Below are positions 23,334-38,465 of a stretch of 64,000 nucleotides of DNA, in pieces; the stretch's first letter is position 1; every line of letters begins with the position of its first letter. This stretch comes from an uncultured Candidatus Rokubacteria bacterium (GTDB lineage Bacteria; Methylomirabilota; Methylomirabilia; Rokubacteriales; CSP1-6), in contig CAWBMV010000037.1 of NCBI GenBank assembly GCA_963789955.1, forward strand, positions 224,001 to 288,000, given 5' to 3'. The translations under genes were made by a program, and so were the position numbers. A model generated the notes under the pieces. The model did no database searches. It was not told the DNA's origin and saw nothing but the letters and a program-made list of their open reading frames with translations.

Positions 23334-25672
23334 TCAAAAGCGCACCGTGATACCGCCCCAGCCGGCGATGGGAGCCCCGGGCGCGACGAACCGCTCGACG
23401 CCGATGGGGTCGGCGAATGCGTTGAAATTCAGGGCACCCGCTGTCACGTAGTGGGCGTTGGTGACGTTGTCGACGCGTCCCCACAGCTCGACCTGCTTGA
23501 TCGGGAAGTAGCGAAAGGAAAGATTCAAGGTCGTGTACCCGTCCAGCTTGGGCTGGTCGTTGCCGTCGTCGCCGCGCAGATAGCTCCCGGACACGTGGAT
23601 GACGTTGGCGCCCGCGAAGAAGCCCTTCAGGATTTCGACCTCTGCCCCCGCCTTGAGATTCTGGGCCGGGATGCCGGGGATGTGGTCCCCGGTCCTGACT
23701 CGGACACCGCTGGGATCGGTGACGCTCGCCAGCGTCTCGTTACTCTGGTAGGTGGCATCGACGTAGGCGTAGTTCAGAAAGTACCCGATCCGCTTCCACC
23801 GCCCCTGCAAGCCAGCCTCGATGCCCTGGCGTCGCGTGTTGGCCACGTTCTGGAAGAAGCCGGCTCCTCCGGTCTCGGCCACGATGAAGAGGATGTCGTC
23901 CGTCAGGTCGGTGCGAAAAAACGAGAGGCTCCAGAGGAACGTATCACCGAGCGGCAGCTTCCCCCGTAGACCGAATTCGTAGGTGCGCGCCACGACGGGG
24001 TCGAGCGGGGGGTCCGCGACGAAAGCGTTGGGGAGCCGGCAGGGCGCGTCGGCGTCGGCGCACGTGAGCTCGGCCGGGGTCGGCGCGCGGAACCCCTCGC
24101 TGTACGAGAAGAACGTCGTCAGATTGGTGATCGGTTGGTAAGTGAGCCCGACCATCGGGCTGACGTGGTCGAAGCTGTGGTCGCCGTCGAGATCCGGATT
24201 GCCGCCCGAGCGGTCGCGGATGTCGATACTGACGTGCTGAAACCGCCCCCCCAGGGTGATGCCCAGCTGGGGAAGGATCTCGAACGTGTCGGCCACGTAC
24301 ACGCCGACGTTCTGTTGTCCGGTTTCGACGTCGACCTCGGCCTCGAAGTCCGCGGTCCGCGCCGTGCCCACGCTGTTGCCCTGGGGCACGAAGTCCGACG
24401 GCGCCTCGCTCTGGGTGAAGCGAGTAGCGTGTCCATCATAGGCGACCCCGACGGTGACCCTGTTGTGTCGGTCGAAGATTTTGCCCTGGTGCTGGAACTG
24501 CAGCGTCACGCCCCAGTCCTGCGTGCGCGTCTTGGTGCTGCGGTCCTGGCCCTCCGCTTCGAGCTCGAGGTTCCCGGCGAGAGGGTTGCCATCCGAATCG
24601 AAGAGTCCCACGGCCGAGCCTCGGCAGAGTCCCAGGTGCAGCGGGCGCCCGCTAGCCGTGAAGGCTTGCGCATCCGTGGCGTCGTTGACGCAGTTGACCT
24701 CGGCGTCGCCGTTCAACGTTTCGCGCTGGTAGTTGCGATAGAACGCGTTGCCCGACAGCAGCACGGTGTCCGTCAGCCACTGACTCGCCCGCACGATTGG
24801 CCAGGTGCATGACGTTCTTGGTCTGGTCGGGAAAGGTGTACACGGCGCTTCGATCCACGGCCAAGGTGCTCTCGGGCACGAGCCCGTTCCCGACGAGTTT
24901 GTCGTTGGCGAAGATGTAGCTCAGCTCGACGTCGGTTTGGGACGTTCGGTATCCCACCTTGGCGAACAGCTGGCGCAAATCGGTCGGCGACTCGTCCCGC
25001 CAGCCGTTCTCGCTGAGAGCATTGAAGCCCAGGAACCAGTCGAACGAGCCCCGGGAGCCGCCATAGGAGCTCTCGACGGCCCAGCGCCCCCATGAGCCGC
25101 CGGAGGCGGCGATCTCGATACCGGGAAAGTCGAAGCCACGCTTGGTGCGTAAGGAGAGCGCGCCGCCGAGCGTGTTCAACCCGAAGAGTGGATTGGAGCC
25201 GGGGATAATGTCGACCCCGGCGATCGCGAACTGGGGGATGAGATCCCAGTTGAGCGTGTCGCCGAATCCGTCGTTGAAGCGCATACCGTCCAGATAGACG
25301 GACAAGCCGATCGGGCTACCGGTCAGAGGGCCGCCGAGGAAGCCCCGATACGTGAGGCGTTCTGCCAGGGTTGCCCTGGCTGCCGATCGTGTTCACCGAG
25401 CCGAGATTGCGAAACAGCTGCTCGGGAAGATTGGGGAGGTTCTGCTTCTTGATCTCCTCCGCGGTCACTCGCTGAGCGTTGCCGGGGTATTTCTCCAGCG
25501 GAATCCCAAGGGACGGGAGCGGCGTGGTGCCGATGACCTGGACGGGCGGGAGCTGAATGGCCTCCTCGGGCTGTCCTGTCGTTCTCTCCGGGGAGGCCGG
25601 CGGCGCCTGGGCCGCCACGGGCGAGCTGACGAGCAGAGCCAGTATCACCACCTGCGGGATGACCGAACGCAT
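23334..25672 (-). CDS. TonB-dependent receptor, frameshifts near 25360-25315 and 24795
   Basis: Signal peptide MRSVIPQ...AAQA, plug 'SVYLDGMRFNDGFGDTLNWDLIP', 'PGSNPLFGLNTLGGALS', SEGFRAP and C-terminal Phe. Confidence 0.88.
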
Positions 25673-25746
25673 CGCTGTCCTCTCGCGGCCGTGGGTCGTG
25701 GCTGTGCCTAGTGTGGTAGCGGCAATCAAATAAGTCGTGCAAGGCC

Positions 25747-25770
25747 CAGATGGCCACAAATCAGATGGCC
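25747..25770. repeat. 9-bp direct repeat CAGATGGCC x2 upstream of the TonB-dependent receptor
   Basis: Copies at 25747-25755 and 25762-25770. Confidence 0.5.
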
Positions 25771-26807
25771 GCCTGGCTACGGCGACCACCACGCGCCGGA
25801 CGGTCTCGGACGAGCTCGTCACGATCAAGGATCTTCTGATCAGCGAGGCCCAAACCTTCTGCGAGAGTCCCAGAATTCGTCGTCCCCAGGTGCCCGAGGA
25901 TGAGCACGACAAGACTCACCACGACGGCCGCGCCCAGAACCCTCAAGGACCGCTCGATATCCCGGAAGACCGGCAGGTTGCCCGCTCCGAGCCGATAGGC
26001 GCCGGGCTTCTCGAGGAGCACGCCGAGCGCGCCCGCCATCGCGGACATGGTCCAGCCCGCGTTCGGGCTCGCCGTCCGACGGCGATCGCGCCGCAGCGCC
26101 GCGAAGGCGCCGCCCGCGCTCTCGCCGGCCAGGGCGGCCGCGGCGACGACGCTCAGACCGGCCAGCCGCGCCGGAATCAGATTCAGGAGGTCGTCGAGCC
26201 GCGCCGCGACCTTGCCGAAGTATTCGAGTGGGCCCACGCGATAGCCGAACATCGCGTCCGCGGTGTTGATCACGCGATAGACCGCCGCACCCGCGAGCCC
26301 TCCGGCGAGAAACCACAGCGCCGGCGCCACGAGGCTGTCGGTCAGGTTCTCGGCGACGGACTCGATGGTGGCCGAGGCGACATGCCCCTCGTCGAGCTCC
26401 TCGGTGGGGCGGCTCACCAGGTGATATCCGACCGCTCGGCGAGCGGCGACGAGATCGCCGCGGCCGAGCTCCCCGGCCACTTCACGCGCGGCGCCGGCGA
26501 GTCCGCGGAGGGAGAGCAGGCACGTGAGCGCGAGGGCCTCGACAAGCAGCCCGGCGAATCCGAGGCGAGCGGCGAGCGCCGTCACGGCCATGGCGGCGAC
26601 ACTCGCCAGGCCGGCGACACCGAGAGTGAGCGCGGCGCCGCCGGCGAGGAGCACCGCCGGCGGGCCGTGGCACAGACGGACCCGGCCCGCGGCGAGGAGC
26701 CGGCCGAGCCACGCGACGGGATGGTAGCGGTTGGGCGGATCGCCGAAGGCCAGATCGATCGCGAGAGCCAGGAGCAGAACGAGAGGCTTGGCGACTTCCG
26801 GGCTCAG
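25761..26807 (-). CDS. cbiB: Adenosylcobinamide-phosphate synthase CbiB; ends approximate
   Basis: DLAFGDP..YHPV, LVSRPT, ESVAENLTD, YRVINTADAMFGY, SPNAGW and LEKPGAY motifs. Confidence 0.9.
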   Translation of the reverse strand: MSPEVAKPLVLLLALAIDLAFGDPPNRYHPVAWLGRLLAAGRVRLCHGPPAVLLAGGAALTLGVAGLASVAAMAVTALAARLGFAGLLVEALALTCLLSLRGLAGAAREVAGELGRGDLVAARRAVGYHLVSRPTEELDEGHVASATIESVAENLTDSLVAPALWFLAGGLAGAAVYRVINTADAMFGYRVGPLEYFGKVAARLDDLLNLIPARLAGLSVVAAAALAGESAGGAFAALRRDRRRTASPNAGWTMSAMAGALGVLLEKPGAYRLGAGNLPVFRDIERSLRVLGAAVVVSLVVLILGHLGTTNSGTLAEGLGLADQKILDRDELVRDRPARGGRRSQAAI

Positions 26808-28332
26808 GACCTGGGAAATGAGAGCCCCACGAGCTTGGCCAGGGCCCCGAGGTCCACCGCGCGCGCCACGGCATCGGCGAGGAGCTCGTATCGGTCGCCG
26901 GCCGGCGTGCCCCACCGCGGATCGGCCACAATCCCCTTCCGCGCCGCCAGCGATCTCAAGAATGCGCGACGCAGCGAGTCGTTCGCGAAGAGGCCGTGAA
27001 GGTAGGTGCCGACCACGTTGCCGGCTGCGCTCACGGCGCCGTCGGCGTCGTGGACCGCGCGATTGCCCCGCTCCACGATCGTGAACGGCGTCGGCGAGCT
27101 CGCGCTCGTTCGACCCGCGTGGATCTCGTAGGCGACGACCTCGCTGCCGGCGGCTCCGGAGAACGGCCCCGACATCTCGGCCACCCGGGCTCGAACACGG
27201 ACGGTCGTCTTGCTGGGCTCGAAGGTCGTGACGACCGGCAACAATCCGAGCCCTTGCGTCGAGCGCGCGTCGGATTCGACGTGATCCGGGTCGTGCACGG
27301 CTTCGCCGAGCATCTGGTAGCCCCCGCACACGCCGACGATCGGCTGCCCGTCCGCCGCCGCGCGCCGGATCGACTGCGCCAGCCCGGTGGCGAAGAGCCA
27401 CTGCAGGTCGGCGACGGTGCCCTTGCTGCCCGGCAGCACGATGACGTCGGCGCCGCGGAGCTCGTCGGCGTCGCGCACGAAGCGCACGTGAACGCCGGGC
27501 TCCCCCGCGAGCGGCTCGAAGTCGTCGAAGTTCGAGATGAGCGGCAGGCGGACGACCGCGACGTCGAGCGCGCCGGGCGCGCCCCAGCGCGATGGCTCGT
27601 CCAGATCGAGCGAGTCCTCGGAGGGCACGAGCCCCGCTTCGAGATACGGCACGACTCCGAGCACCGGCACCCCGGCGCGCGCGCTGAGCTCGGCAAGCCC
27701 GGGGGTCAGTACGGTCGCGTCGCCCCGGAATCGGTTGACGATGAGGCCGCCGACCCGCGCGCGGTCATCGCGGATCGAGCAGACTCAGGGTGCCGAGCAG
27801 GGCGGCGAACACGCCGCCGCGATCGATGTCGCCCACGAGCAGCACCGGCGCGTCCGCCATGCGCGCGATCGTCATGTTGACGATGTCGCTGTCGCGCAGG
27901 TTGATCTCGGCCGGGCTCCCGGCGCCCTCGATGATCACCAGATCCCACGCCTGTCGAAGCCGGGCGAGACTCTCGCCGACGATCGGCAGAAGCTCCGCCT
28001 GCATGCGCCTGATACTCGCGCCAGGTGACGCTCGTGACCGCGCGGCCGCGCACGACGACCTGCGAGCGATAACCGGGCTCGGGCTTGAGGAGGATCGGGT
28101 TCATGTCGACGGTGGGCTCGATGCCGGCGGCGGCCGCCTGCGCCGCCTGCGCGCGCCCGATCTCGCCGCCCTCGCGCGTGACGGCGGCGTTCAGCGACAT
28201 GTTCTGCGACTTGAACGGCGCGACCCGGTAGCCGGCGCGCGCGAAGATCCGACAGAAGGCCGCGGCCAGCAGGCTCTTGCCGACGCCGGAGGCGGTGCCC
28301 TGGACCATGAGACACGGCGCCGCGGTACTCAT
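26804..28332 (-). CDS. cobQ: Cobyric acid synthase, frameshifts near 28005 and 27770
   Basis: [56 protein letters not shown] and GTYLHG motifs. Confidence 0.93.
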
Positions 28333-29124
28333 CGCCCGAAGCGGACGCTCAGCTCCGGCACGGAACGCGTAGTCGGGGCTCTGTCCGGCGAGGGACGTCT
28401 GCACCGCCGCGTCGAACGCGATCGTCGGGGTCAGCACGAACTGGAGACCCGCGTCGAAGCCGACGGAGCTACGTGCCCCGCGCTCGGCGGCCGAGGAGAC
28501 GAAGACTTCCGCGTACGCCGACCATCGCTCGCCGAGGTCGTGGCTGAGCGAGGCCGAGCCGAACCCCTGGGCGAGATAGCCGCTGGGACGCTGCGCCAGC
28601 GCGTTGACACCGAGATTCGCGTCCAGGCTGAATTCGCCGGGCAACGCGAAGGTCGCGAGACCGGTGAGGCCGAAATCCGGCACGTTGGTCCCGTGCGGAG
28701 CGTGGGCGGTGGGAAATGTGACGATCGGGAGCAGACCGAGCGAGGGCCACCAGCGGCCCTCGCGGCCGTCGAAGAAGCGGTACTTCGCCTCGAGGGAGAC
28801 ATCGCCCCATCCGGTGTCGTCCTGCGCGCCTCTCAGCACGACGACGGGCTCGCCGTCGAGCCTGAGCTCCAGGTGCTCCGTGATCCCGGCCCGCAAGGTG
28901 ACGTCGAGCGTGAGCTGCCGCTCGGCGGGACTGCCGCCGATGCTCGTCCGCGAATACTCGACGCCGCTCTCGATCTGAAGCGCGCCAGGCTGGACGGTAT
29001 ACGTGCTGGTCGAGACGCTGGGACGATCGGTCTGGATGCGCTCGGACTCGGCCGCCGGCGCGACGGACGCGGTCACGATCACAGCCCAGCACGCCGCGCC
29101 GAGGCTCCACGCCGCGGCCCGCAC
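28329..29124 (-). CDS. Outer-membrane beta-barrel 'transporter' (MetA-pathway/phenol-degradation-like family)
   Basis: Signal peptide, [32 protein letters not shown] and amphipathic strands; last codons frameshifted. Confidence 0.75.
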
Positions 29125-29128
29125 GAGG

Positions 29129-29644
29129 TCAGCCGCCCGCGTATCGGCGCTGGAGCTCCTGCCAGAGCTCCGTCTTCTCCCAGCGGGGCTCCCGGAGGCG
29201 CTGCCACTTCTCGTCGAAGTGGGGATTCGGGAACAGGACCGTGACCATCTGCTCGCCCCGGCCGTTCCAGAGCCGGAGGCCCCATGTCGCGGGCGCGCAC
29301 GAGCCGCCCTCGGTCTTGAAGAACGCGGCCCGGGCCACGCGCCGGATGCGCGCGAGCTCGGCGCTGCGGGTACCGCGATGATCGTTGACGCAGAGATGAA
29401 AGTGCCAGGCGCCCGTGTCGACGGTCAGATAGCCGTCGAGCATCGTGACCTTCGGCGGAGTGGCGAACTGGATCTCGTACGCCGCGCCCTCGATCAGCGG
29501 CCCGACCGTGAGCTCGGCCCAGTGCTCGGTGAAGAGCTGAACGAGCAAACGCTCGACGCTGTCGCCCTCGACGGCCATGTCGTGATACTCGGTCGTCGTT
29601 CCATCGAGGCCGTGCTCGATCGCCGGCGCCGCGTTTCGCCGCAT
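29129..29644 (-). CDS. Hypothetical protein, ChuX/HutX/HemS-like sequence pattern
   Basis: 171-aa ORF with host codon usage inside the B12 operon; [32 protein letters not shown] and C-terminal WQELQRRY. Confidence 0.75.
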
Positions 29645-29667
29645 AGGTGAGCATACTACTGCAGGTC

Positions 29668-30568
29668 TTACTGCAGGTCGAAGACCACCGGCAGACGAAC
29701 TCTCAGCAGTCGGGGCTTGAGACCGCGGGGAAACGGCTGCGGCTCGAGGCTCCTCACGGCTTCCAGCGCGGCCTCGTCGAGCAGAGGATGCGACGACGAG
29801 CCCGTGACGGAGACATCGCCGATCGCGCCATCCGACTTGATGAAGATCTCCAGGTAGACGGTGCCCGTCAGTCCTCGGCTACGCGCAGGCGGCGGATAGC
29901 GGAGCGCATCCAGGATGCGGCGTCTCACCCCGGCCAGATAGCCTCCGTACTCGGCTCCGGGCGCCCCGCCCGCCTGACCCACCCGACGCCAGGGCCGTAC
30001 CGCCACCCGCCCCGCCGGGGCCGGCTCCTGACGTACCCGGACCCGGCGCGGCTCGACCGCCACCGCCCGGCTCGGACGTCGACGCGACTCGCTCACCGAA
30101 CGCGCTGCCCGCATTCTCGCGCGGGGCGCCGGGCGACGGGCTCGGTGCGACGTCGGGCGGAACCTCACGCGCGGGCACGATGGCGACCGCGGGCTCGGGT
30201 TGACGCGCCTCCTGATTCGCCGGCTGCGCCTCTTCGCGCTCGCGCACGGGCGCCGGCTCGGGCGGCGCGGAAGGCGTGACGGGCGACGACACGGCCGGAG
30301 CGGGGGCGGGCGACCGTGCCGGCCCGGACCGGCCGCCATCGCGCCCAGCCGGGCGAGCCGACCCGGTCGAGACTCGCTTCGCCTCGCCACCGCCGCCCGC
30401 GGCAGATCCCGCCGCGGCGACTGGAGCTGCACGCTCTTCGAGCGACTCCAGGTCGACGAAGAGGACACTCGGGTGCGATTCGCCGGAGGTGAGGACAAAG
30501 AGCAGAGCGACCGCGCCGCCGTGCGCCGCGATCGAGGCGAGCAAGGTCGCCGCCGGCAGGCGCACCAT
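29668..30568 (-). CDS. tonB: Energy transducer TonB, frameshift near 29975
   Basis: TM 'LASIAAHG', Pro-rich linker, YPPPARSRGLTGTV, SSSHPLLDEAALEAV and PVVFDLQ. Confidence 0.85.
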
Positions 30569-31223
30569 CACCGATGCTCTTCCATCCAGCGCTGGATCCC
30601 GACCTGCAGCGCGTCGTGGGCCGCGCGTGCGACCACCCAGCCGAAGTCGCTGATCGGTCCGCCGAACCGGCACCGTGGCCCGCGTCCGGTGGCCGCGACG
30701 ACGACCGAGTCGGTCGACGTGCCGCTCGCCACGCGGCCGTCGTCGCACCGAAGGTCCGCCGGACGCGAGCAGCGATGCCTTGACCTCGGTGACCGTCATC
30801 ACCGCGTTGACGAGCGCCGCGGCCTCGGGATCGCCGTCCACGACGACGATCGAGTTGATCGTCGTCGGTGCCCACACGCCGACGGGCGTCCGGCCCGCCG
30901 CGATTCGGTTCGACAGACCGACCGTCACGACCGCGAGGGCGGTCAATCCCGGACCCGCTGGCTTCGGCGACGACCGCTTTCTCCGTCCACGCCGAGGTGA
31001 GCAGGCCGATCCAGGGCCCGCGGATCTCTCGCCGCTCGACGAATCGCGGTAGCAAGCCGTCCGTCTCCGCTTCCGGGATGTTCTTGCGGACGTGCAGGTT
31101 CACGATCGCGCGGGCCGTGGTGAATCCACCGCCGACGAACGCCGAGGACAGGATCGTCAACGGCTCGCGCGCCGTGACGACGACCGCCTCGCGATCGACC
31201 GCGACCTCGATTCCATCGATCAT
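30568..31223 (-). CDS. cbiZ: Adenosylcobinamide amidohydrolase CbiZ, frameshifts near 30945 and 30765
   Basis: LSSAFVGGG, IGLLTSA, VTVGLSN, TINSIV, AVMTVTEVK and (third frame) ASGTSTDSVVV. Confidence 0.82.
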
Positions 31224-31323
31224 TCGCGCTCGCACCTTCTTGCTGTCGCCATCCGGAGTCCTGGTTGCGCCGGCCGGCGGCACGCGCCCGGCGCGAGTGT
31301 CGTCCGGCCCGGCTCGGGAAAGT

Positions 31324-33290
31324 CTAGAACGACACGCGCAGCCCGGCCAGCGCGTTGATGCCGAGCGCCGGGAAGCCTCGGACCTCCGAGTAGTCGTTGT
31401 TGGTCAGGTTCTGGATGCGCGTCCACAGATCGACGCGCCTGGATGAACGCGTAGCGCTGGAAAAGTCGGTACGTGCCGCCGGCGTTCACGACCCCGTAGG
31501 CGCTGTTCCACACCCACGCCGCCGCCCGACGATCGGCTCGAACTGCTTGCTCATCCACAGCCTTCGCCGAAGAGCTCGAGCCGAGGGATCGGACGCCATG
31601 TCAGCCGGAGGTTCACGCGATCCTGCGGCTCACGCGGCAAGGGCCGGTGGGTTTGCAGATTTTCCGTGTCCGTGATAGGTGTAGTTCAGCGACGCGGTGA
31701 GATTGTCGAGGATGTCGACATCGGAGACGAACTCGATGCCTTTCGAGCGCACCTTGCCGAAGTTCACACCCATCACGAACGGCGGCGTGGCGATGGGCAC
31801 GAACCCGATCAGATTCGTGATCTCCTGGTGGAAATACGTCAGACCGAGACGGATCCGGTCCTTCCAGAGCTTCTGGTCGACGCCGAAGTCGTACCCGAAG
31901 CTGTCTTCGGGCTTCAAGTTGGGATCGGAGAACCCCGGGAAGAAGAGGTCGTTGAAGGTCGGCGCCCGGAAACCCGAGCCGGCGCCGCCGTGGATCCTGC
32001 GTGCCCCACTCGCGGATCACGTAGGCGAGCGAGCCTCGCTCCGTCCAGTGGGTGCCGTAGATGCTGTTGTCCTCGACGCGAAAGCCCGCCGACATGAACA
32101 GGCGGTCCCACAAGCGAAACGTCTGCTGGAAAAAGACCGACTTCGTATGGCTCGTGCCGTCGAACGCCGAGCTGCCCTGAGCCTCGCCGTCCTCGGTGCG
32201 GTACTCGAGCCCGATCGTGCTGGTCGACCAGGGCCCGATGTGGAAGTGGTTCAGCAGCTCCGCCTCCCAACGTTCGGTTTTGAAGCGCCCGGGAAACTCG
32301 CAGAACGGGGGAAACGGGCATTCCTCGGCCGCATCTGGTGCATCCATGAACGCCTGGTTGCTCTCGTAGCGTCCGAGGCGCAGCTCGGCCTCCCACCACT
32401 CGACGGGCTTGGTCCGGCCGTTCAGCGCCATCACCCACGTCTCGGTGAGCTGGTGGGCGTTGGAGTCGATGATCGGCTCGTTCGGCAGCGCCCCCGTGTT
32501 CGAGGTGAGGAACTTCACGGGCACGCCCGTCGCGTTCTGGTCCCAGCGCAGGGTGAATGCGATCGAGCTGTCCCACGGCAGCGAGACCCCGAGGCGCAGG
32601 TTGACCGCGTTCTTGTCCGAGCTGTCGTTCTTGAACTGGCCGTTCGATTCCAGATGGGAGATCGAGCCCGCGTAGTCGAGGAACGAGTAGGCGCCGCTGA
32701 ACCAACCCCGGCCGGTGTAGGTGTCGTAGTTGCCCGCTCCGCCCTCGACGGTCGCCGAGAACGGTCCCTTACCCTTCTTCGTGATGATGTTGACGACGCC
32801 GCCGATCGCGTCGGCCCCGTACAGCGTCGACTGCGGCCCGCGGATCACCTCGATACGTTCGATCAGGTCGGGAGAGATGTCGGAGAGGTCGGCCTGCCCC
32901 GTCGTCGCGCTCTTGACCCGGACGCCGTCGACGAGGACCTGAACCTGGTTGGCGTTGGCGCCGCGGATGCTGATGTTGGAGACCTTGCCGTAGCTCCCCG
33001 CCCGGCGGATCGTCGACGCCGGGCACGTTGCGGAGCACGTCCTCGACGGTCTCGAAGTGATACTTCTGCACGTCGTCGCCGGGGACGACCGTGACCGAGG
33101 CGCCGAGCTGCTCGGCGCGCGTCTCCAGCTTGGTGGCGGTCAGGACCACGGGATCGAGGTCACGCACCGGCGCGGGAGCCGGCGCAGGAGCCGGTACGGG
33201 CGTCGGCGCGGGAGCCGGCTCCTGCGCGGCGAGCATCCCCGCGGGAATCAGCAACACGAGTGGCAACAGCAGGCGAACGATCCAGAGCAT
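31324..33290 (-). CDS. btuB: TonB-dependent cobalamin receptor (BtuB-like), several frameshifts
   Basis: DPVVLTATK, IRGANANQVQVLVDGV, IRGPQSTLYGADAIGGVVNIIT, FRAPTFNDLF and C-terminal Phe; directly under a B12 riboswitch. Confidence 0.88.
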
Positions 33291-33337
33291 GCGGCTTCAC
33301 TCCTTCTTCCACGAAAGGGTTGGAAGCGATCGCCCGG

Positions 33338-33500
33338 AACAGGTCTCCTGACTCGTGGATCGTCGCGCCGCGCCCAGCCTTCCCGTCCGCGTCGGCGCGG
33401 ATAGTGGCAATCTCGGGCGCGTGCTCCCCACTCACAGTGGCGGGTCCGTGCCGGTCTCGGCCGCCTTCGGCCTCACCGGCTTCCCTTGATCCGGAGCGAA
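33338..33500 (-). ncRNA. Cobalamin riboswitch upstream of btuB
   Basis: Minus strand AGGGAAGCCGGTG...CCGGCACGGACCCGCCACTGTG...GCCACT...GGGAAGG...GAGTCAGGAGACCTG contains the B12-element core and B12 box. Confidence 0.93.
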
Positions 33501-33539
33501 TTCTCGAAGTGCTACCTCGTGTGGCCGACCTCCTTTCTC

Positions 33540-34367
33540 TTAGCCCCGGCGGGCTATCGGCGGGTCGACCCGCCAGGTGAGCCGCACGACGGGCCGCCGC
33601 GTCGTTTCGTTCTTGTCGACGACGACGCCGCACCCGAACACCGACGCGAGGAGCGCTTCGTCGAGCACCGCCTCGGGCGAGCCGATCGCCACCGGGCGGC
33701 CGCCGTTCAGCAGGAGGAGGCGGTCACACACCTCGGCGGCCAGATTGAGATCGTGCGACACGAGCAAGATCGTCATGCCGCGCTCGCGGTTCAGGCGCCG
33801 CAAGAGCGCGGCGGCCTCGACCTGATAGCGCAGATCGAGATGCGCCGTGGGCTCGTCGAGGACCAGCAAGCGCGGCTCCTGGGCGAGCGCGCGCGCGATC
33901 ACCGCGCGCTGACGCTCGCCGCCGCTCAGGTGCTCGAGCGGCATGTCCGCGAGCTCGAGCACGCCGGTGGCCGCCATCGCCTCGTGCGCGACCGCGCGAT
34001 CGCGCGGGCTCTCGAAGTAGCGGCCGGGATCGTGCGGGTAGCGGCCCATCAACGCGAGCTCGCCGACCGTGAACGGAAACTGCGGCAGGAGTCCCTGGGG
34101 CACGACCGCGACCCGGCGCGCCAGATCCGTCCGCGACAGTCGTCCGACCGGCACGCCCTCGAGACGGATCTCGCCGGCCGCGGGCTCGAGCACGCGCGTG
34201 AGCAGACGGATCAACGTCGTCTTCCCCGAGCTGTTCGGCCCGATCACGCCGATGATCTCGCCGGCCGAAATCTCCAGGGAGAGATCGGACAGGGCAAACG
34301 GACGCGTTCTCCGCTCGGCCGATGCGGGATACGCGAAGCTCACGTTGCGGAACTCTACGAGCGTCAT
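33540..34367 (-). CDS. Cobalamin/iron-chelate ABC ATPase (BtuD/FepC-like)
   Basis: GPNSSGKTT, LSGGERQR, LDEPTAHLD and SHDLNLA motifs. Confidence 0.9.
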   Translation of the reverse strand: MTLVEFRNVSFAYPASAERRTRPFALSDLSLEISAGEIIGVIGPNSSGKTTLIRLLTRVLEPAAGEIRLEGVPVGRLSRTDLARRVAVVPQGLLPQFPFTVGELALMGRYPHDPGRYFESPRDRAVAHEAMAATGVLELADMPLEHLSGGERQRAVIARALAQEPRLLVLDEPTAHLDLRYQVEAAALLRRLNRERGMTILLVSHDLNLAAEVCDRLLLLNGGRPVAIGSPEAVLDEALLASVFGCGVVVDKNETTRRPVVRLTWRVDPPIARRG

Positions 34368-34646: not shown

Positions 34647-35664
34647 TCAGAGGTTGGCGCGGTAGCGGGTGCGGAGGAGATAGATGAAGAACGGGGCGCC
34701 GCAGAAGGCGGTGATGACGCCGACCGAGAGCTCGGCGGGGGCGACGATGCTGCGCGCCAGGGTGTCGGCGAGCAGCAGGAAGATGCCGCCGCCGACGAGC
34801 GCGGCCGGAACGAGCAACCGGTTGTCCGAGCCCAGGAGGATCCGGAGCATGTGCGGCACGATGAGGCCGACGAAGCCGATGGGGCCGACGAACGCGACGA
34901 CGCTCGCGGTGAGAAGTGCCGCGCCGAGAAAGATCGTCAGCTTCAGCCGGTCCGCGGCGACGCCGAGCTGGAGCAGCGCCTCCTCGCCGAGCGCCATCAG
35001 GTTCAGCTCGCGCGCGTGGGTCACGACGAGCGCGAAGCCGAGGGCCGACAAGACCGCGAACAGGCCCAGCGCGCCGGGCGGAATCGGCGCGAGATTGCCG
35101 AGGAGCCAGTGGACGACGCCGCCCAGGCGGTTGAAGTCGAGCAGTGAGATCACGACCGTGATCGCCGCCGAGAAGAAGATGCCGACGATGACTCCGGCCA
35201 GCAGCAACGTCTGGATCGACAGCCCGGCGCCGACCGCCGCGATGAGATACACGGCGCCGGCGGCGACGAGGGCTCCGGCGAACGCGAACGCGGTCAGGCC
35301 CACCGCCGCGCGAAGGGTCAGGCCGAGGCCGAAGCTCTGCCCGATCACGACCCCGAACGCGGCCCCGGCCGAGATGCCGAGCACCGAGGGCTCGGCGAGC
35401 GGGTTTCGCGTGAGCGCCTGGAACGCGACACCCGCGACCGCGAGCGCGCCGCCCGCGAGCAGCGCGGCGGCGATCCGGGGCAGGCGGATCGACAACGTCA
35501 CGACGCGCTCGACGGACTCCGGCGCGGCGCGGCCCGCGACCGCCGACACGACCGCGCTCGGCGAGAGCTGCGCGCTTCCAAGAAAGAGCGCGCCGGCCGC
35601 GACGAGGACCAGCACACGCCGACAAGACGCTCAGCACCAGGACCAGCCGCCGCGTCGGGTTCAC
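34647..35664 (-). CDS. Cobalamin/iron-chelate ABC permease (BtuC/FecCD), frameshift near the start
   Basis: IRLPRI, FQALTRNPLAEPSVLGISAGA, GPIGFVGLIVPH and GAPFFIYLL motifs. Confidence 0.92.
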
Positions 35665-36551
35665 CGAAACGCCTCCGGATGGATCGCGCGCGCCAGCTGC
35701 TCGAGACCGTCCACGAGGCGCGGCCCGTAGCGATGCATCAGGTCTCCGCTGACGGACAGAAGCCGCCCGGATTTGACGGCGGGAAGCGAGGCGAGGCGCT
35801 GCCACTTCTCGATCGAGACCGCGCCGGTACCGGCACCGTGGTTGGCCAGCAGGATGACCTCGGGGCTCTTGGCGACCGCGGCCTCCAGGCTGTAGCGCGG
35901 CCAGGCGTCGGCGTCGTCGGCCGTGAGCGATTGCCCGCCGGCGAGCTGGATCAGCTCGGTCACGAGCGCCTCGCGGCCCGGCACGATGAGCGGATCCGGC
36001 CACAGCACGTAGAGCACGCGGGGGCGCCCGAACGGCGCGACGGCCGTCTTCACCGCCTCGATCCGCTGCTCCAGGCGCGCCACGACCGGCCCGGCCGCCG
36101 TTTCGCGGCCGGTCAGCACACCCAGCCGTCGCATGAGCGACAGCGCATCCGCGACGTGATGGGCGGCGACGAGGTACACGGGCACTCCGACGCGCGAGAG
36201 CTGCGTGAACGTGTCCTCGCGCGTGCCCTCGGTCGTGGCGATCACCAGATCGGGACGCAGCGCGACGATCGCCTCGAGGCTCGGCGCGACCATCCCGCCG
36301 ACCTTCGGCTGGCGGCGCGCTTGCGGCGGAAAGTCGCAGAAGTCGGTCACGCCGACCAGCAAGTACTCCGCGTTGAGCGCATAGAGAATCTCCGTGACGC
36401 TCGGAACGAGCGACACGATGCGCTTGGGCGGTGCCGCGAGCGTGACGTCACGACCGAGCATGTCGCGCGTGGTGAACGCCGCGGCGGACGCGACCGTGAG
36501 GAACGTGACCGCGATGATCGCGGCGACGACCGTGACGCGCCGCCTCGTCAC
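35661..36551 (-). CDS. btuF: Periplasmic cobalamin-binding protein (BtuF-like)
   Basis: RIVSLVPSVTEILYAL, VGVTDFCDFP, EAIVALRPDLV and RYGPRLVDG motifs. Confidence 0.88.
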   Translation of the reverse strand: MTRRRVTVVAAIIAVTFLTVASAAAFTTRDMLGRDVTLAAPPKRIVSLVPSVTEILYALNAEYLLVGVTDFCDFPPQARRQPKVGGMVAPSLEAIVALRPDLVIATTEGTREDTFTQLSRVGVPVYLVAAHHVADALSLMRRLGVLTGRETAAGPVVARLEQRIEAVKTAVAPFGRPRVLYVLWPDPLIVPGREALVTELIQLAGGQSLTADDADAWPRYSLEAAVAKSPEVILLANHGAGTGAVSIEKWQRLASLPAVKSGRLLSVSGDLMHRYGPRLVDGLEQLARAIHPEAFR

Positions 36552-37615
36552 GGCCGCTCCTCGGGCGCCGATCGGCTCACTCCGGCGGTCTTGAAGGTCG
36601 CCATCTCGCTCCAGACGAGCGCGGCCGCCCGAGCCAGATGGATGAACAGCGCGGCGCCCGTCCCCTCGCCGAGGCGCAGGCCGAGGTCGAGGTAGGGATC
36701 GAGCCGGAGGTGCTCGAGTGCCAGCGCGTGACCGCGCTCGGCCGAGCGATGCGAGGCGAAGAGCGCGTGGCGCGCGGCCGGCGCGAGCGTGACGGCGAGC
36801 AGCGCCGCCGCGCCGGCGATGAACCCGTCGAGCGCCACCGGAACACGGCGCGCGGCGCCCGCGAGGATCACGCCCGTGAGGCCGGCGATCTCGAAGCCAC
36901 CGACCTTTGCCAGCACGTCCAGAGCGTCCTGAGGGTCCGGGCGGTTGACCTCCAGCGCGCGGCGCACCACCGAGACCTTGCGCGCGTAGGTCGCGTCGTC
37001 CACGCCGGTGCCACGCCCGGTCACCTGCTCGGCCGAGGCGCCGGTGATCGCCGCCGTGATCACGCTCGCGCTGGTCGTGTTGCCGATACCCATCTCGCCC
37101 GTCGCCAGGAGATCCGCGCCCGCGTCCATGGCCTCGTCGGCGAGGCGCGCCCCGGTCTCGACCCCGCGGATCGCGTGCTCCGAGGTCATGGCGGGCCCGA
37201 CGGCGATGTTCGCCGTCCCCGGCCCGATCGGACACTCGACGAGGTCTGGTGAGCGGCCGAGCGGGCTCGCGACCCCGAAATTGGCGACGACGACGCGCGC
37301 TCCGGCCTGGCGCGCGAGCACGTTCACCGCGGCGCCGCCGCGCGTGAAGTTCTCGACCATCTGCGCGGTCACGATCTGCGGATAGGCGCTGACCCCCTCG
37401 GCGACGACACCATGATCCGCGGCGAACGTGAAGATCACCGGGCGCGTGACCGCGGGCGCCCGGCCGCGCAGGATCGCGAGACGCAGCGCGATCTCCTCGA
37501 GCCGGCCGAGGCTTCCCGGCGGCTTCGTCAGGCTGTCGAGGTGGTGACGAGCCGCGGCTTCGCCGTCCCGTGCCGGCGCGGCGATCGAGCCGAGAAGCCG
37601 GGAGAGGTCGCTCAC
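36548..37615 (-). CDS. cobT: Nicotinate-nucleotide--dimethylbenzimidazole phosphoribosyltransferase
   Basis: LTKPPGSLGRLE, FAADHGV, GEMGIGNTT, VGGFEI and LRLGEGTGA motifs. Confidence 0.95.
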   Translation of the reverse strand: MSDLSRLLGSIAAPARDGEAAARHHLDSLTKPPGSLGRLEEIALRLAILRGRAPAVTRPVIFTFAADHGVVAEGVSAYPQIVTAQMVENFTRGGAAVNVLARQAGARVVVANFGVASPLGRSPDLVECPIGPGTANIAVGPAMTSEHAIRGVETGARLADEAMDAGADLLATGEMGIGNTTSASVITAAITGASAEQVTGRGTGVDDATYARKVSVVRRALEVNRPDPQDALDVLAKVGGFEIAGLTGVILAGAARRVPVALDGFIAGAAALLAVTLAPAARHALFASHRSAERGHALALEHLRLDPYLDLGLRLGEGTGAALFIHLARAAALVWSEMATFKTAGVSRSAPEERP

Positions 37616-38145
37616 GCTAGCGCGCCCGGTCCCTTCACGGTGAGCGGAATGCCGGCGACCATGAGCACGACGGTCTCGCACGCGGCGGCGACTCGCTGAT
37701 TCACGTGGCCCAGCAGGTCGCGAAACCGCAGGCCCGCCGCGGTCTCCGGGTGCACGCCTTCACCGACCTCGTTCGACACCAGGGTGATGCTCGAGCGACC
37801 GCCGCGGATCGCGCCGGCGAGCGCGTCGCCATTTTCCAGAATCGTGTCGTCGCGGTCGCCGCGGAGCAGCAGGTTCGAGACCCACAAGGTGAGGCAGTCG
37901 ACGATGATGCCGTCGCAGGTGCCGTCGAGGCCGCGCAGCCGCGACACCAGATCGAAGGGCTCCTCGACGGTCGTCCAAGGCGACGGGCGATCGGCGCGAT
38001 GGCGGGCGATGCGCTTGGCCATGTCCTCGTCGCGCGCCTCGGCGGTGGCGACGAAGACAATCCGGGTGTCGGCCGAGAACCGTTCGCTCGCGAAGCGGCT
38101 CTTGCCGCTGCGCGCGCCTCCGATGATGAAGAGCGATGCCGCCAT
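37612..38145 (-). CDS. cobU: Adenosylcobinamide kinase/guanylyltransferase
   Basis: GGARSGKS, RIARHRADR, VDCLTLWVSN, VSNEVG and FRDLLG motifs. Confidence 0.95.
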   Translation of the reverse strand: MAASLFIIGGARSGKSRFASERFSADTRIVFVATAEARDEDMAKRIARHRADRPSPWTTVEEPFDLVSRLRGLDGTCDGIIVDCLTLWVSNLLLRGDRDDTILENGDALAGAIRGGRSSITLVSNEVGEGVHPETAAGLRFRDLLGHVNQRVAAACETVVLMVAGIPLTVKGPGALA

Positions 38146-38187
38146 CTGCCCGGGTCCTCCCTCGAAGACCGGTGAACGGATCGCGCC

Positions 38188-38333
38188 CGGGCAGGTCTCC
38201 TGGCTCTCGGATCGTCCTACTCCCCGCGCCTTCCCGGCCTGACCGGCCAGTGGCACTCGCGGGTTTCGTCCCCGATTACAGTGACGGGGTCGCGGCGGCT
38301 TCTACCGCCTTCCCTGGGCCCTCGTGGGCATCC
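38188..38333 (-). ncRNA. Cobalamin riboswitch upstream of cobU
   Basis: Minus strand AGGGAAGGCGGT...CCGCCGCGACCCCGTCACTGTAA...GCCACTG...GGGAAGG...GAGCCAGGAGACCTGCC. Confidence 0.93.
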
Positions 38334-38465
38334 GCGGGCGCGAACAACGCGGGGAACCGTAGCAGAACGACCGGTCGACCGCAACACGTGCCACCATGCC
38401 GACGACCGCCTTCCGCCCCGAAACTTGACATTGCGCAGGCCGGGTGGGGAAATTGGGCAGCCCAG

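Follow-up and report, generated by a model that had tools for sequence, protein, structure and literature searches.

The locus raises two matters that are poorly known in bacteria, namely what receives vitamin B12 in the cytoplasm behind the importer and how cobalt is shared between corrin and non-corrin enzymes. Within the window, the whole stretch of 64,000 nucleotides analysed here, an open reading frame (ORF) at 29129..29644 (minus strand) encodes a DUF7676 protein of 171 aa with a predicted ChuX/HutX/HemS fold and a candidate cobalt/corrinoid site comprised of Glu57, Asp70, His81, His83, and Cys85. The host is a Rokubacteriales bacterium, its close database relatives being named Candidatus Rokubacteria. 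The protein scored 191.7 bits against Pfam DUF7676 (PF24724; gathering cut-off 27) over model positions 4-166 of 166, and no NCBIfam model matched it. The gene is single-copy in the host genome (87% complete), and a copy in a genome of the same genus shares 91% identity over all 171 aa, with the ORF intact in one frame. A total of 1508 relatives were obtained at E<=0.001 among 1742 candidates. The original prediction described a soluble ORF of this length with a particular residue pattern, lying between tonB and the barrel and cobQ genes; ORF and pattern were present exactly as given, no membrane segment or signal-like N-terminus was detected in the protein (maximum 19-residue hydropathy 0.97), and the placement was confirmed, with cbiB next after cobQ. 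Its statement that no corrinoid role had been characterised agrees with a literature search (most subscription journals lying outside it) that found no paper naming DUF7676 or PF24724.

All genes of the surrounding B12 locus are encoded on the minus strand, and two cobalamin riboswitches (Rfam RF00174) lie upstream of the ORF on the same strand, in line with the B12 control originally proposed. Riboswitch 1 (38173..38376, 93.1 bits) heads cobU-cobT-btuFCD, which comprises genes for a cobinamide kinase/guanylyltransferase (cobU, 37612..38145; PF02283, E 1.6e-54, and PRK05800 over cut-off), a DMB phosphoribosyltransferase (cobT, 36548..37615; TIGR03160 over cut-off), a btuF-like periplasmic binding protein (35661..36551; PF01497), a btuC-like permease (34647..35615; PF01032, with BtuC as the best NCBIfam rows, below cut-off), and a btuD-like ABC ATPase (33540..34367; PF00005). 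Riboswitch 2 (33321..33509, 77 bits) heads btuB-cbiZ-tonB-DUF7676-barrel-cobQ-cbiB, that is, a btuB-like TonB-dependent receptor (31327..33290), an adenosylcobinamide amidohydrolase (cbiZ, 30572..31223; PF01955 in two frames, three frames by tblastn), tonB (29668..30568; PF03544), the DUF7676 ORF, a MetA-pathway-type beta-barrel protein (28354..29124; PF13557, one frame), cobyric acid synthase (cobQ, 26804..28332; TIGR00313 in two pieces), and adenosylcobinamide-phosphate synthase (cbiB/cobD, 25926..26819 as the range matched by tblastn; TIGR00380 over cut-off). The DUF7676 ORF starts 23 nt past the tonB stop and the barrel ORF begins 4 nt after it; the gene thus follows an RF00174 element in the same orientation and with little space to its neighbours. 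From this arrangement, the 171-aa ORF is a predicted member of the cobalamin-riboswitch regulon. Terminator-like sites were at chance level (9 versus 5.6 +/- 2.4 expected), and one of them lies inside tonB. The MetA-pathway-type barrel (PF13557) also follows DUF7676 in many Rokubacteriales B12 operons. A second TonB-dependent receptor (23334..25672), found after cbiB and seen in few relatives (L049), is possibly inside the riboswitch-controlled unit.

In the assembly, btuB, cbiZ, tonB, cobQ, and the second receptor are frameshifted. Since btuB, cbiZ, tonB, and cobQ are whole in same-genus genomes, these breaks are most likely sequencing errors. Single-frame breaks are frequent across 23334-33290 and elsewhere in the window (ftsH, argS), a pattern typical of long-read assembly errors.

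The gene inventory of the host genome was examined at its 87% completeness. No CbiX, CobN, CobH, CbiE, CobF, or CobW was found by tblastn and no CbiM by HMM search, so the window operon has no evident cobalt-ion client or importer. Eleven matches to the B12-binding domain, QueG, PduO, and a frame-broken NicO-family match were present, together with a cobalt-type nitrile hydratase and its accessory gene on another contig (C11:60888-62553), a locus lacking a DUF7676 copy. From this inventory (no chelatases or CbiM, B12 users, cobalt-type nitrile hydratase), the host is predicted to be a corrinoid salvager that also needs ionic cobalt. A third cobalamin riboswitch occurs in two genera (host C22:560599-560771 and L290:11821-11985). 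By eye, the genes under it resemble those for a flavin monooxygenase, a cyclopropane-fatty-acid-synthase-like methyltransferase, and a desaturase, which perhaps represent a B12-independent lipid modification route.

The distribution of the family is patchy. DUF7676 was over the cut-off in 116 of 251 genomes of the host's phylum, in 5/401 Pseudomonadota, and in 1/301 and 1/201 genomes of two other phyla (centre genomes included), suggesting that most B12 importers do without it. Within the host's order it was found in 115 of 179 other genomes versus 0/71 elsewhere in the phylum, and nthA, encoding the nitrile hydratase alpha subunit, in 141/179 versus 2/71, these genomes being kin and not independent. 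Many members of the order have nthA without DUF7676, as in one family of 21 genomes (f2) with nthA in 19 and DUF7676 in 6.

To establish the genomic context of the family, 260 DUF7676 loci were gathered, of which 140 with at least 4.5 kb upstream were counted and 120 were too short. They comprised Rokubacteriales regions picked for long contigs or genus coverage, GTDB loci (the best 80 of at least 562 confirmed matches to an alphaproteobacterial query), plasmid loci (9 of 15 records matching the DUF7676 domain), metagenome loci (80 top-ranked out of 104 matches; a nitrile-hydratase-accessory fusion led the query, which biases this set to that context), and five loci from 400 Pseudomonadota drawn evenly. 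Riboswitches were detected with Rfam and a profile built from 20 found, two Rfam-only cyanobacterial hits being added by hand. A cobalamin riboswitch lay within 9.5 kb on the same strand in 107 of the 140 loci, which include the best-80 GTDB and metagenome sets and are not independent, compared to a chance rate of ~0.002 in the host genome; the count of homologues under such riboswitches, suggested as a check on the original prediction, therefore came out in its favour. By set, the values were 23/41 for Rokubacteriales, 53/62 for GTDB (from the best 80 of at least 562), 19/23 for metagenomes (from the best 80 of 104), 7/9 for plasmids, and 5/5 for the even draw, all five of the latter having the order riboswitch-receptor-DUF7676. 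Six other loci were nitrile-hydratase-linked and 26 were neither. The riboswitch link occurs in both halves of the DUF7676 family tree, and ties to a B12 gene or riboswitch extend across Rokubacteriales, Alpha- and Betaproteobacteria, cyanobacteria, and one Rhodococcus record.

Riboswitch-linked copies mostly stand directly after btuB, the usual gene orders being btuB-DUF7676-ABC transporter and btuB-DUF7676-190-aa membrane protein. Among the 75 GTDB loci with a called gene (from the best 80 of at least 562), a TonB-dependent receptor precedes in 51 and the 190-aa membrane protein follows in 61; one such receptor scored best against the B12 receptor model (E 4e-89 versus 2e-54 for hemin). PduO was found in 23 of the 80 GTDB loci (best 80 of at least 562). 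A heme-operon context was rejected, as no ChuS, ChuX, ChuW, or ChuY homologue was detected in the 260 loci (2.9 Mb), with a control that found ChuS in 23/24 HemS loci. CbiZ and CobQ, proposed originally as the clients of the protein, were likewise rejected as fixed partners, since the commonest orders outside Rokubacteriales (riboswitch-btuB-DUF7676-S-component and btuB-DUF7676-ABC transporter) have neither, and since cbiZ is kept in five of the six B12-operon regions without DUF7676 (from five genomes of three Rokubacteriales genera). DUF6925 is a candidate B12-linked unknown: at L057:9021-9977, L060, and L278, all of them B12 uptake operons with a riboswitch at the head, it neighbours DUF7676 or the receptor. 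A 200-aa protein without a Pfam match (motif HCLEGA) adjoins DUF7676 outside B12 operons in genera g7, g11, and g21 (L012, L016, L251, L280, L281, L040).

The 190-aa membrane family was observed at L054:4879-5445 and in 60 other GTDB loci (best 80 of at least 562), after btuB-DUF7676 under cobalamin riboswitches, and a host copy lies outside any B12 operon (C36, near 129640-130190). It gave nothing significant in Pfam, NCBIfam, PDB sequence, or Foldseek searches. In a wide structural search its model matched the ECF S-component fold, with BtuM first (Z 11.9), followed by RibU (11.3, 11.1) and CbiM (10.7); BtuM is within 1 Z unit of the riboflavin carriers, a tie. The protein has an invariant Cys and lacks the N-terminal Met-His motif that is a feature of CbiM. 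On this modelled fold, the family is a candidate for a new solitary B12 transporter.

An orthologue of DUF7676 may already lie within a studied operon. In the available part of a report on Anabaena PCC 7120, the unit riboswitch-alr4027-btuB2-alr4030-btuFCD is induced ~100-fold by cobalt starvation, the btuB2 transcript is absent once cobalamin is added, and a btuB2 mutant has 50-fold lower uptake of labelled cyanocobalamin (PMC10878165). In the same part of that text, alr4030 is described just as resembling ferredoxins and an alr4030 mutant does not appear (PMC10878165). The published primers for btuB2 and btuF flank a DUF7676-ferredoxin gene of Trichormus variabilis (1 and 0 mismatches); as they match either side of this gene, alr4030 is by position inferred to be a DUF7676 orthologue fused to a ferredoxin. 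Alr4030 is presumably the CfrX named in a 2003 comparative-genomics paper on the B12 regulon. In titles and the beginnings of abstracts, most subscription journals lying outside the search, no paper was found on cfrX with cobalamin or linking the ChuX/HemS fold to corrinoids.

The likeness to ChuX/HutX/HemS that had been noted by eye held in predicted structure and did not hold in direct sequence or profile comparison. An AlphaFold2 model built from 65 sequences had high confidence (pLDDT 94.2, pTM 0.90), and Foldseek against the PDB gave HutX, the LFE_1968-like 3na2, and ChuX as top matches (E 2e-4 to 7e-4, TM 0.5-0.6), followed by two structural-genomics homologues, AVA_4353, then ChuS/HemS/PhuS, and then a drop to noise. 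An independent wide structural search (48,161 chains) gave Z-scores of 10.5, 10.3, 10.0, 9.7, and 8.8 for five superfamily members versus 4.7 for the next fold, the alignments to the five covering 118-130 residues at rmsd 3.0-3.4. Furthermore, Atlas clusters mix DUF7676, LFE_1968-like, and ChuX_HutX proteins at 0.90-0.91. By sequence, none of 71 DUF7676 members scored against the PF06228 or HemS family models at E<=0.1, PDB sequence searches with the 171-aa protein and two family alignments found no relative, and comparing profiles against an in-house ChuX/HemS alignment of just 25 rows gave a probability under 3%. The LFE_1968-like model (PF22684) was matched weakly by 22/71 members (best E 2e-5) and at 17.3 bits by the 171-aa protein, below the cut-off of 27. 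That family was not found in the host or the 251 phylum genomes, where no positive control matched either, and among the papers searched none was found on LFE_1968 or PF22684 or giving a function for them. A tandem repeat form was not seen among the 6 longer DUF7676 forms found, a search that is weak evidence of absence. As judged from the model, DUF7676 is a member of the ChuX/HutX/HemS structural superfamily, yet a separate family by sequence; since it shares the fold and has no sequence score, it may be likened to ChuX/HutX in its working without being a member of that family.

The extra His and Cys residues pointed out in the original prediction proved near-invariant. Among 229 genome-derived DUF7676 sequences of at least 130 aa (close kin included), His81 and His83 are present in all 229, and Glu57, Asp70, and Cys85 in 228, conservation being the same whatever the gene context. 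In a 70%-filtered set of 90 sequences that includes noisier database proteins, the values for the five residues were 97, 98, 98, 89, and 90%. His81, His83, and Cys85 alternate along one strand (81-85) of the model, so their side chains should point toward one common side. Mapped by eye to ChuX, Glu57 corresponds to Glu72, Gly71-Tyr72 to Gly85-Tyr86, His83 to His98, and Asn127-Gly128 to Asn126-Gly129; ChuX His65 has no counterpart, and His81 and Cys85 are additions of DUF7676. We take ChuX His65 and His98 to be the heme-binding residues.

The family is also tied to cobalt outside B12 operons, an unexpected link that the original prediction did not include. Of the genus g11 genomes, 20 have DUF7676, and in every one the gene is ~1.3 kb away from nthA; the order is DUF7676-nthB-nthA-(ferredoxin-accessory fusion), as it is in genus g21. 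In a separate clade, the nitrile hydratase accessory domain (TIGR03889) is followed by DUF7676 within one fused protein. This fusion was seen in 8 metagenome loci (among the best 80 of 104 matches), and nthA and nthB were present in 5 of them. All 18 nitrile hydratase alpha subunits found carry CTLCSC, which we take to be the cobalt-type motif. A single origin of the nitrile-hydratase-linked copies was rejected (p-AU 1.9e-6, 11 rows versus 30) on a quick tree of 41 rows hand-picked from 229, with groups set by context. On the evidence of this tree, DUF7676 was recruited independently at least two times to cobalt-type nitrile hydratase. The B12 operon of genera g11, g20, and g12 occupies the same position and lacks DUF7676, and in g11 all genomes tested (3/3) carry two riboswitches as well as a btuB-like gene. 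According to the available part of one source, cobalt transporters occur in B12 operons or beside nitrile hydratase genes, and the cobalt of nitrile hydratase is non-corrin (PMC7689651), so both a corrinoid and a cobalt ion were kept in play as cargo.

Gene fusions extend these links. DUF7676, CbiX, and a ferredoxin occur in one frame in a cluster of nine members (3 full-length fused, 5 split-gene, 1 partial), and longer forms include CbiE-DUF7676, CobH-DUF7676, and QueG-DUF7676, the last a single ORF in 2 loci. Some of these may be read-throughs, and the adjacency is observed regardless. The apparent fusions P0273 (TonB-DUF7676) and P0277 were read as frameshift artefacts and set aside; P0272 (ATP pyrophosphatase-like) and P0275 (CobH) are each represented by one sequence and might stem from read-through between neighbouring genes. 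A thioredoxin-like 2Fe-2S ferredoxin is a recurring fusion partner or neighbour in several lineages. A Cys-rich thioredoxin-like ferredoxin is fused ahead of the nitrile hydratase accessory domain at L040:7184-8023, L253, L255, and L282, and the same type stands alone in B12 operons L047, L252, and L254. On a Gloeocapsopsis plasmid (L132, 3905-16375), receptor-DUF7676-ferredoxin has no Rfam riboswitch and is surrounded by thrS, folE, hisI, cysS, and GTP-binding genes, a set that presumably resembles a zinc/metal-starvation cluster.

Taken as a whole, DUF7676 very probably handles cobalt in some form. The reading preferred here, tentatively and with rather less than an even chance of being right, is that of a cytoplasmic corrinoid receiver, the counterpart by analogy of the heme receivers HutX and PhuS, as it best fits the majority context and the host. 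A pure corrinoid carrier, however, has no obvious job in nitrile hydratase operons, five near-invariant potential ligands would fit an ion or catalytic site better than one axial ligand, DUF7676 also occurs joined to CbiX, a cobalt chelatase, neither a B12 nor a nitrile hydratase context was seen in 26 of 140 loci, and the protein is dispensable or absent in most B12 importers; the tied S-component match and the incompleteness of the host genome (87%) also weaken it. The nitrile hydratase and CbiX links are best fitted by a free Co(II) metallochaperone or buffer, whose Glu/Asp/His/His/Cys cluster would deliver the ion to CbiX or to the nitrile hydratase accessory protein and for which B12 riboswitches would act as cobalt-starvation sensors. 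Consistent with this are the two independent recruitments to CTLCSC-type enzymes, the one-frame DUF7676-CbiX-ferredoxin, the joins to CbiE and CobH, the retention of the same residues in every context, and the Gloeocapsopsis copy standing without an Rfam riboswitch amid thrS, folE, cysS, and GTP-binding genes. It is nevertheless a doubtful, if serious, possibility, given that the commonest operons hold corrinoid importers only, that the host has no chelatases or CbiM, that its own nitrile hydratase locus has no DUF7676 copy, and that a tetrapyrrole-carrier fold would be retained needlessly.

A corrinoid cobalt-releasing enzyme, which by analogy with the freeing of heme iron by ChuS/HemS would use ferredoxin electrons to open the ring or strip the cobalt and so feed nitrile hydratase or new corrin synthesis, is the sole reading that covers all contexts, with an importer upstream and ion-using clients downstream. 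In the available part of one source, ChuS, HemS, and PhuS degrade heme in vitro (PMC12670364). Genomes with a nitrile-hydratase-linked copy still import B12 (3/3 g11 tested), and DUF7676 and nthA are both common in the host's order and all but missing elsewhere in the phylum. Such an enzyme is unlikely here, as we are aware of no precedent for taking cobalt out of a corrin enzymatically, the host operon salvages corrinoids for many B12 enzymes and destroying them would seem a waste, mapping by eye shows no clear equivalent of the proximal heme histidine of ChuS, and many members of the order have nthA without DUF7676. BtuM, which removes cyanide from B12 by means of a cysteine, offers a parallel for another cobalt-chemistry job instead of cargo transfer, for instance the use of a thiol to remove or handle the cyanide ligand, a redox step, or regulation; an invariant Cys85 beside two histidines, a BtuM-like neighbour that also has an invariant cysteine, and the 26 loci outside both contexts would suit it, but the CbiX, CbiE, and CobH links would be left unexplained and it is rated improbable. 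Least credible, at a very slim chance, is an ordinary heme carrier in B12 operons that mops up, for example, heme entering via the B12 importer: all five clear structural matches are heme-utilisation-fold proteins and His83 maps by eye to ChuX His98, but none of the 260 loci has a ChuS/ChuX/ChuW/ChuY partner, none of 71 members scores against PF06228 or HemS at E<=0.1, B12 is the regulating signal, and heme plays no part in nitrile hydratase.

In the corrinoid receiver scheme, a B12 shortage would turn the operon on, as in print for Anabaena and as the two riboswitches suggest here, and a corrinoid would enter via BtuB/TonB and BtuFCD, a route with import shown in Anabaena and presumed elsewhere, or via the BtuM-like S-component. 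From fold and conservation, the ChuX-type cleft would take the incoming corrinoid and bind its cobalt centre through the His81/His83/Cys85 strand, with Glu57 and Asp70 assisting. The corrinoid would be held, probably while the thioredoxin-like 2Fe-2S ferredoxin reduces the cobalt and the upper ligand exchanges, and adjacency and fusion suggest that it would then pass to remodelling, adenosylating, or user enzymes, e.g. PduO and QueG. The same site would have been co-opted at least two times, as genome context indicates, for the cobalt supply of nitrile hydratase, tying B12 uptake to maturation of that enzyme through two independent recruitments. DUF7676 is thereby a small, soluble candidate for which a residue cluster can be named, an analogous fold has been solved, and a genetically tractable orthologue exists (Anabaena alr4030; also Methylocystis and Azospirillum copies), and it probably extends the ChuX/HemS fold, by analogy, from iron and heme to cobalt and corrinoids, a role so far undescribed for this fold. 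Were cobalt release to prove true, the protein would be the first enzyme to free cobalt from corrinoids that a cell has imported, doing for B12 what ChuS/HemS do in degrading heme, and soil bacteria (such as Rokubacteriales and cyanobacteria) would draw on B12 for the cobalt needed by nitrile hydratase or by their own corrin synthesis.

Compared to known systems, DUF7676 has in common with the cobalt chaperone CobW (COG0523) and the nitrile hydratase accessory protein (TIGR03889) the link to cobalt insertion, although their folds are unrelated and it lacks a GTPase domain. Alr4030 of Anabaena PCC 7120 belongs, by position, to the same family, with DUF7676 and a C-terminal thioredoxin-like ferredoxin between btuB2 and btuF; the window protein is without the ferredoxin. 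The best structural match is to the LFE_1968-like family (PF22684; PDB 3na2) and Anabaena AVA_4353 (3fm2) at Z 10.5, the former being the only known family with a sequence signal to DUF7676, although the 171-aa protein itself is below cut-off. ChuX/HutX (PF06228; PDB 2ovi, 6u9j, 5exv), a homodimer, is of the same size and likewise a single domain (for HutX, Z 10.0 and rmsd 3.3 over 128 residues); it too is cytoplasmic, and its gene accompanies those for a TonB-dependent receptor and an ABC transporter. It differs in identity (13-18%, with no family score) and in being under iron control instead of a B12 riboswitch, and DUF7676 lacks the ChuW/ChuY/ChuS partners. HemS/ChuS/PhuS (PF05171; PDB 4cdp, 2j0p, 4mf9) is a tandem domain pair of ~340 aa, unlike the single domain of 171 aa, and DUF7676 has no evident proximal heme histidine and a context of cobalt, not iron; one of the two repeated domains nonetheless matches it (Z 8.8). 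In the available part of the source, HutX and PhuS deliver heme from the importer to client enzymes (PMC12670364), and the gene order receptor-carrier-ABC transporter of chuA-chuS is paralleled by btuB-DUF7676-btuFCD.
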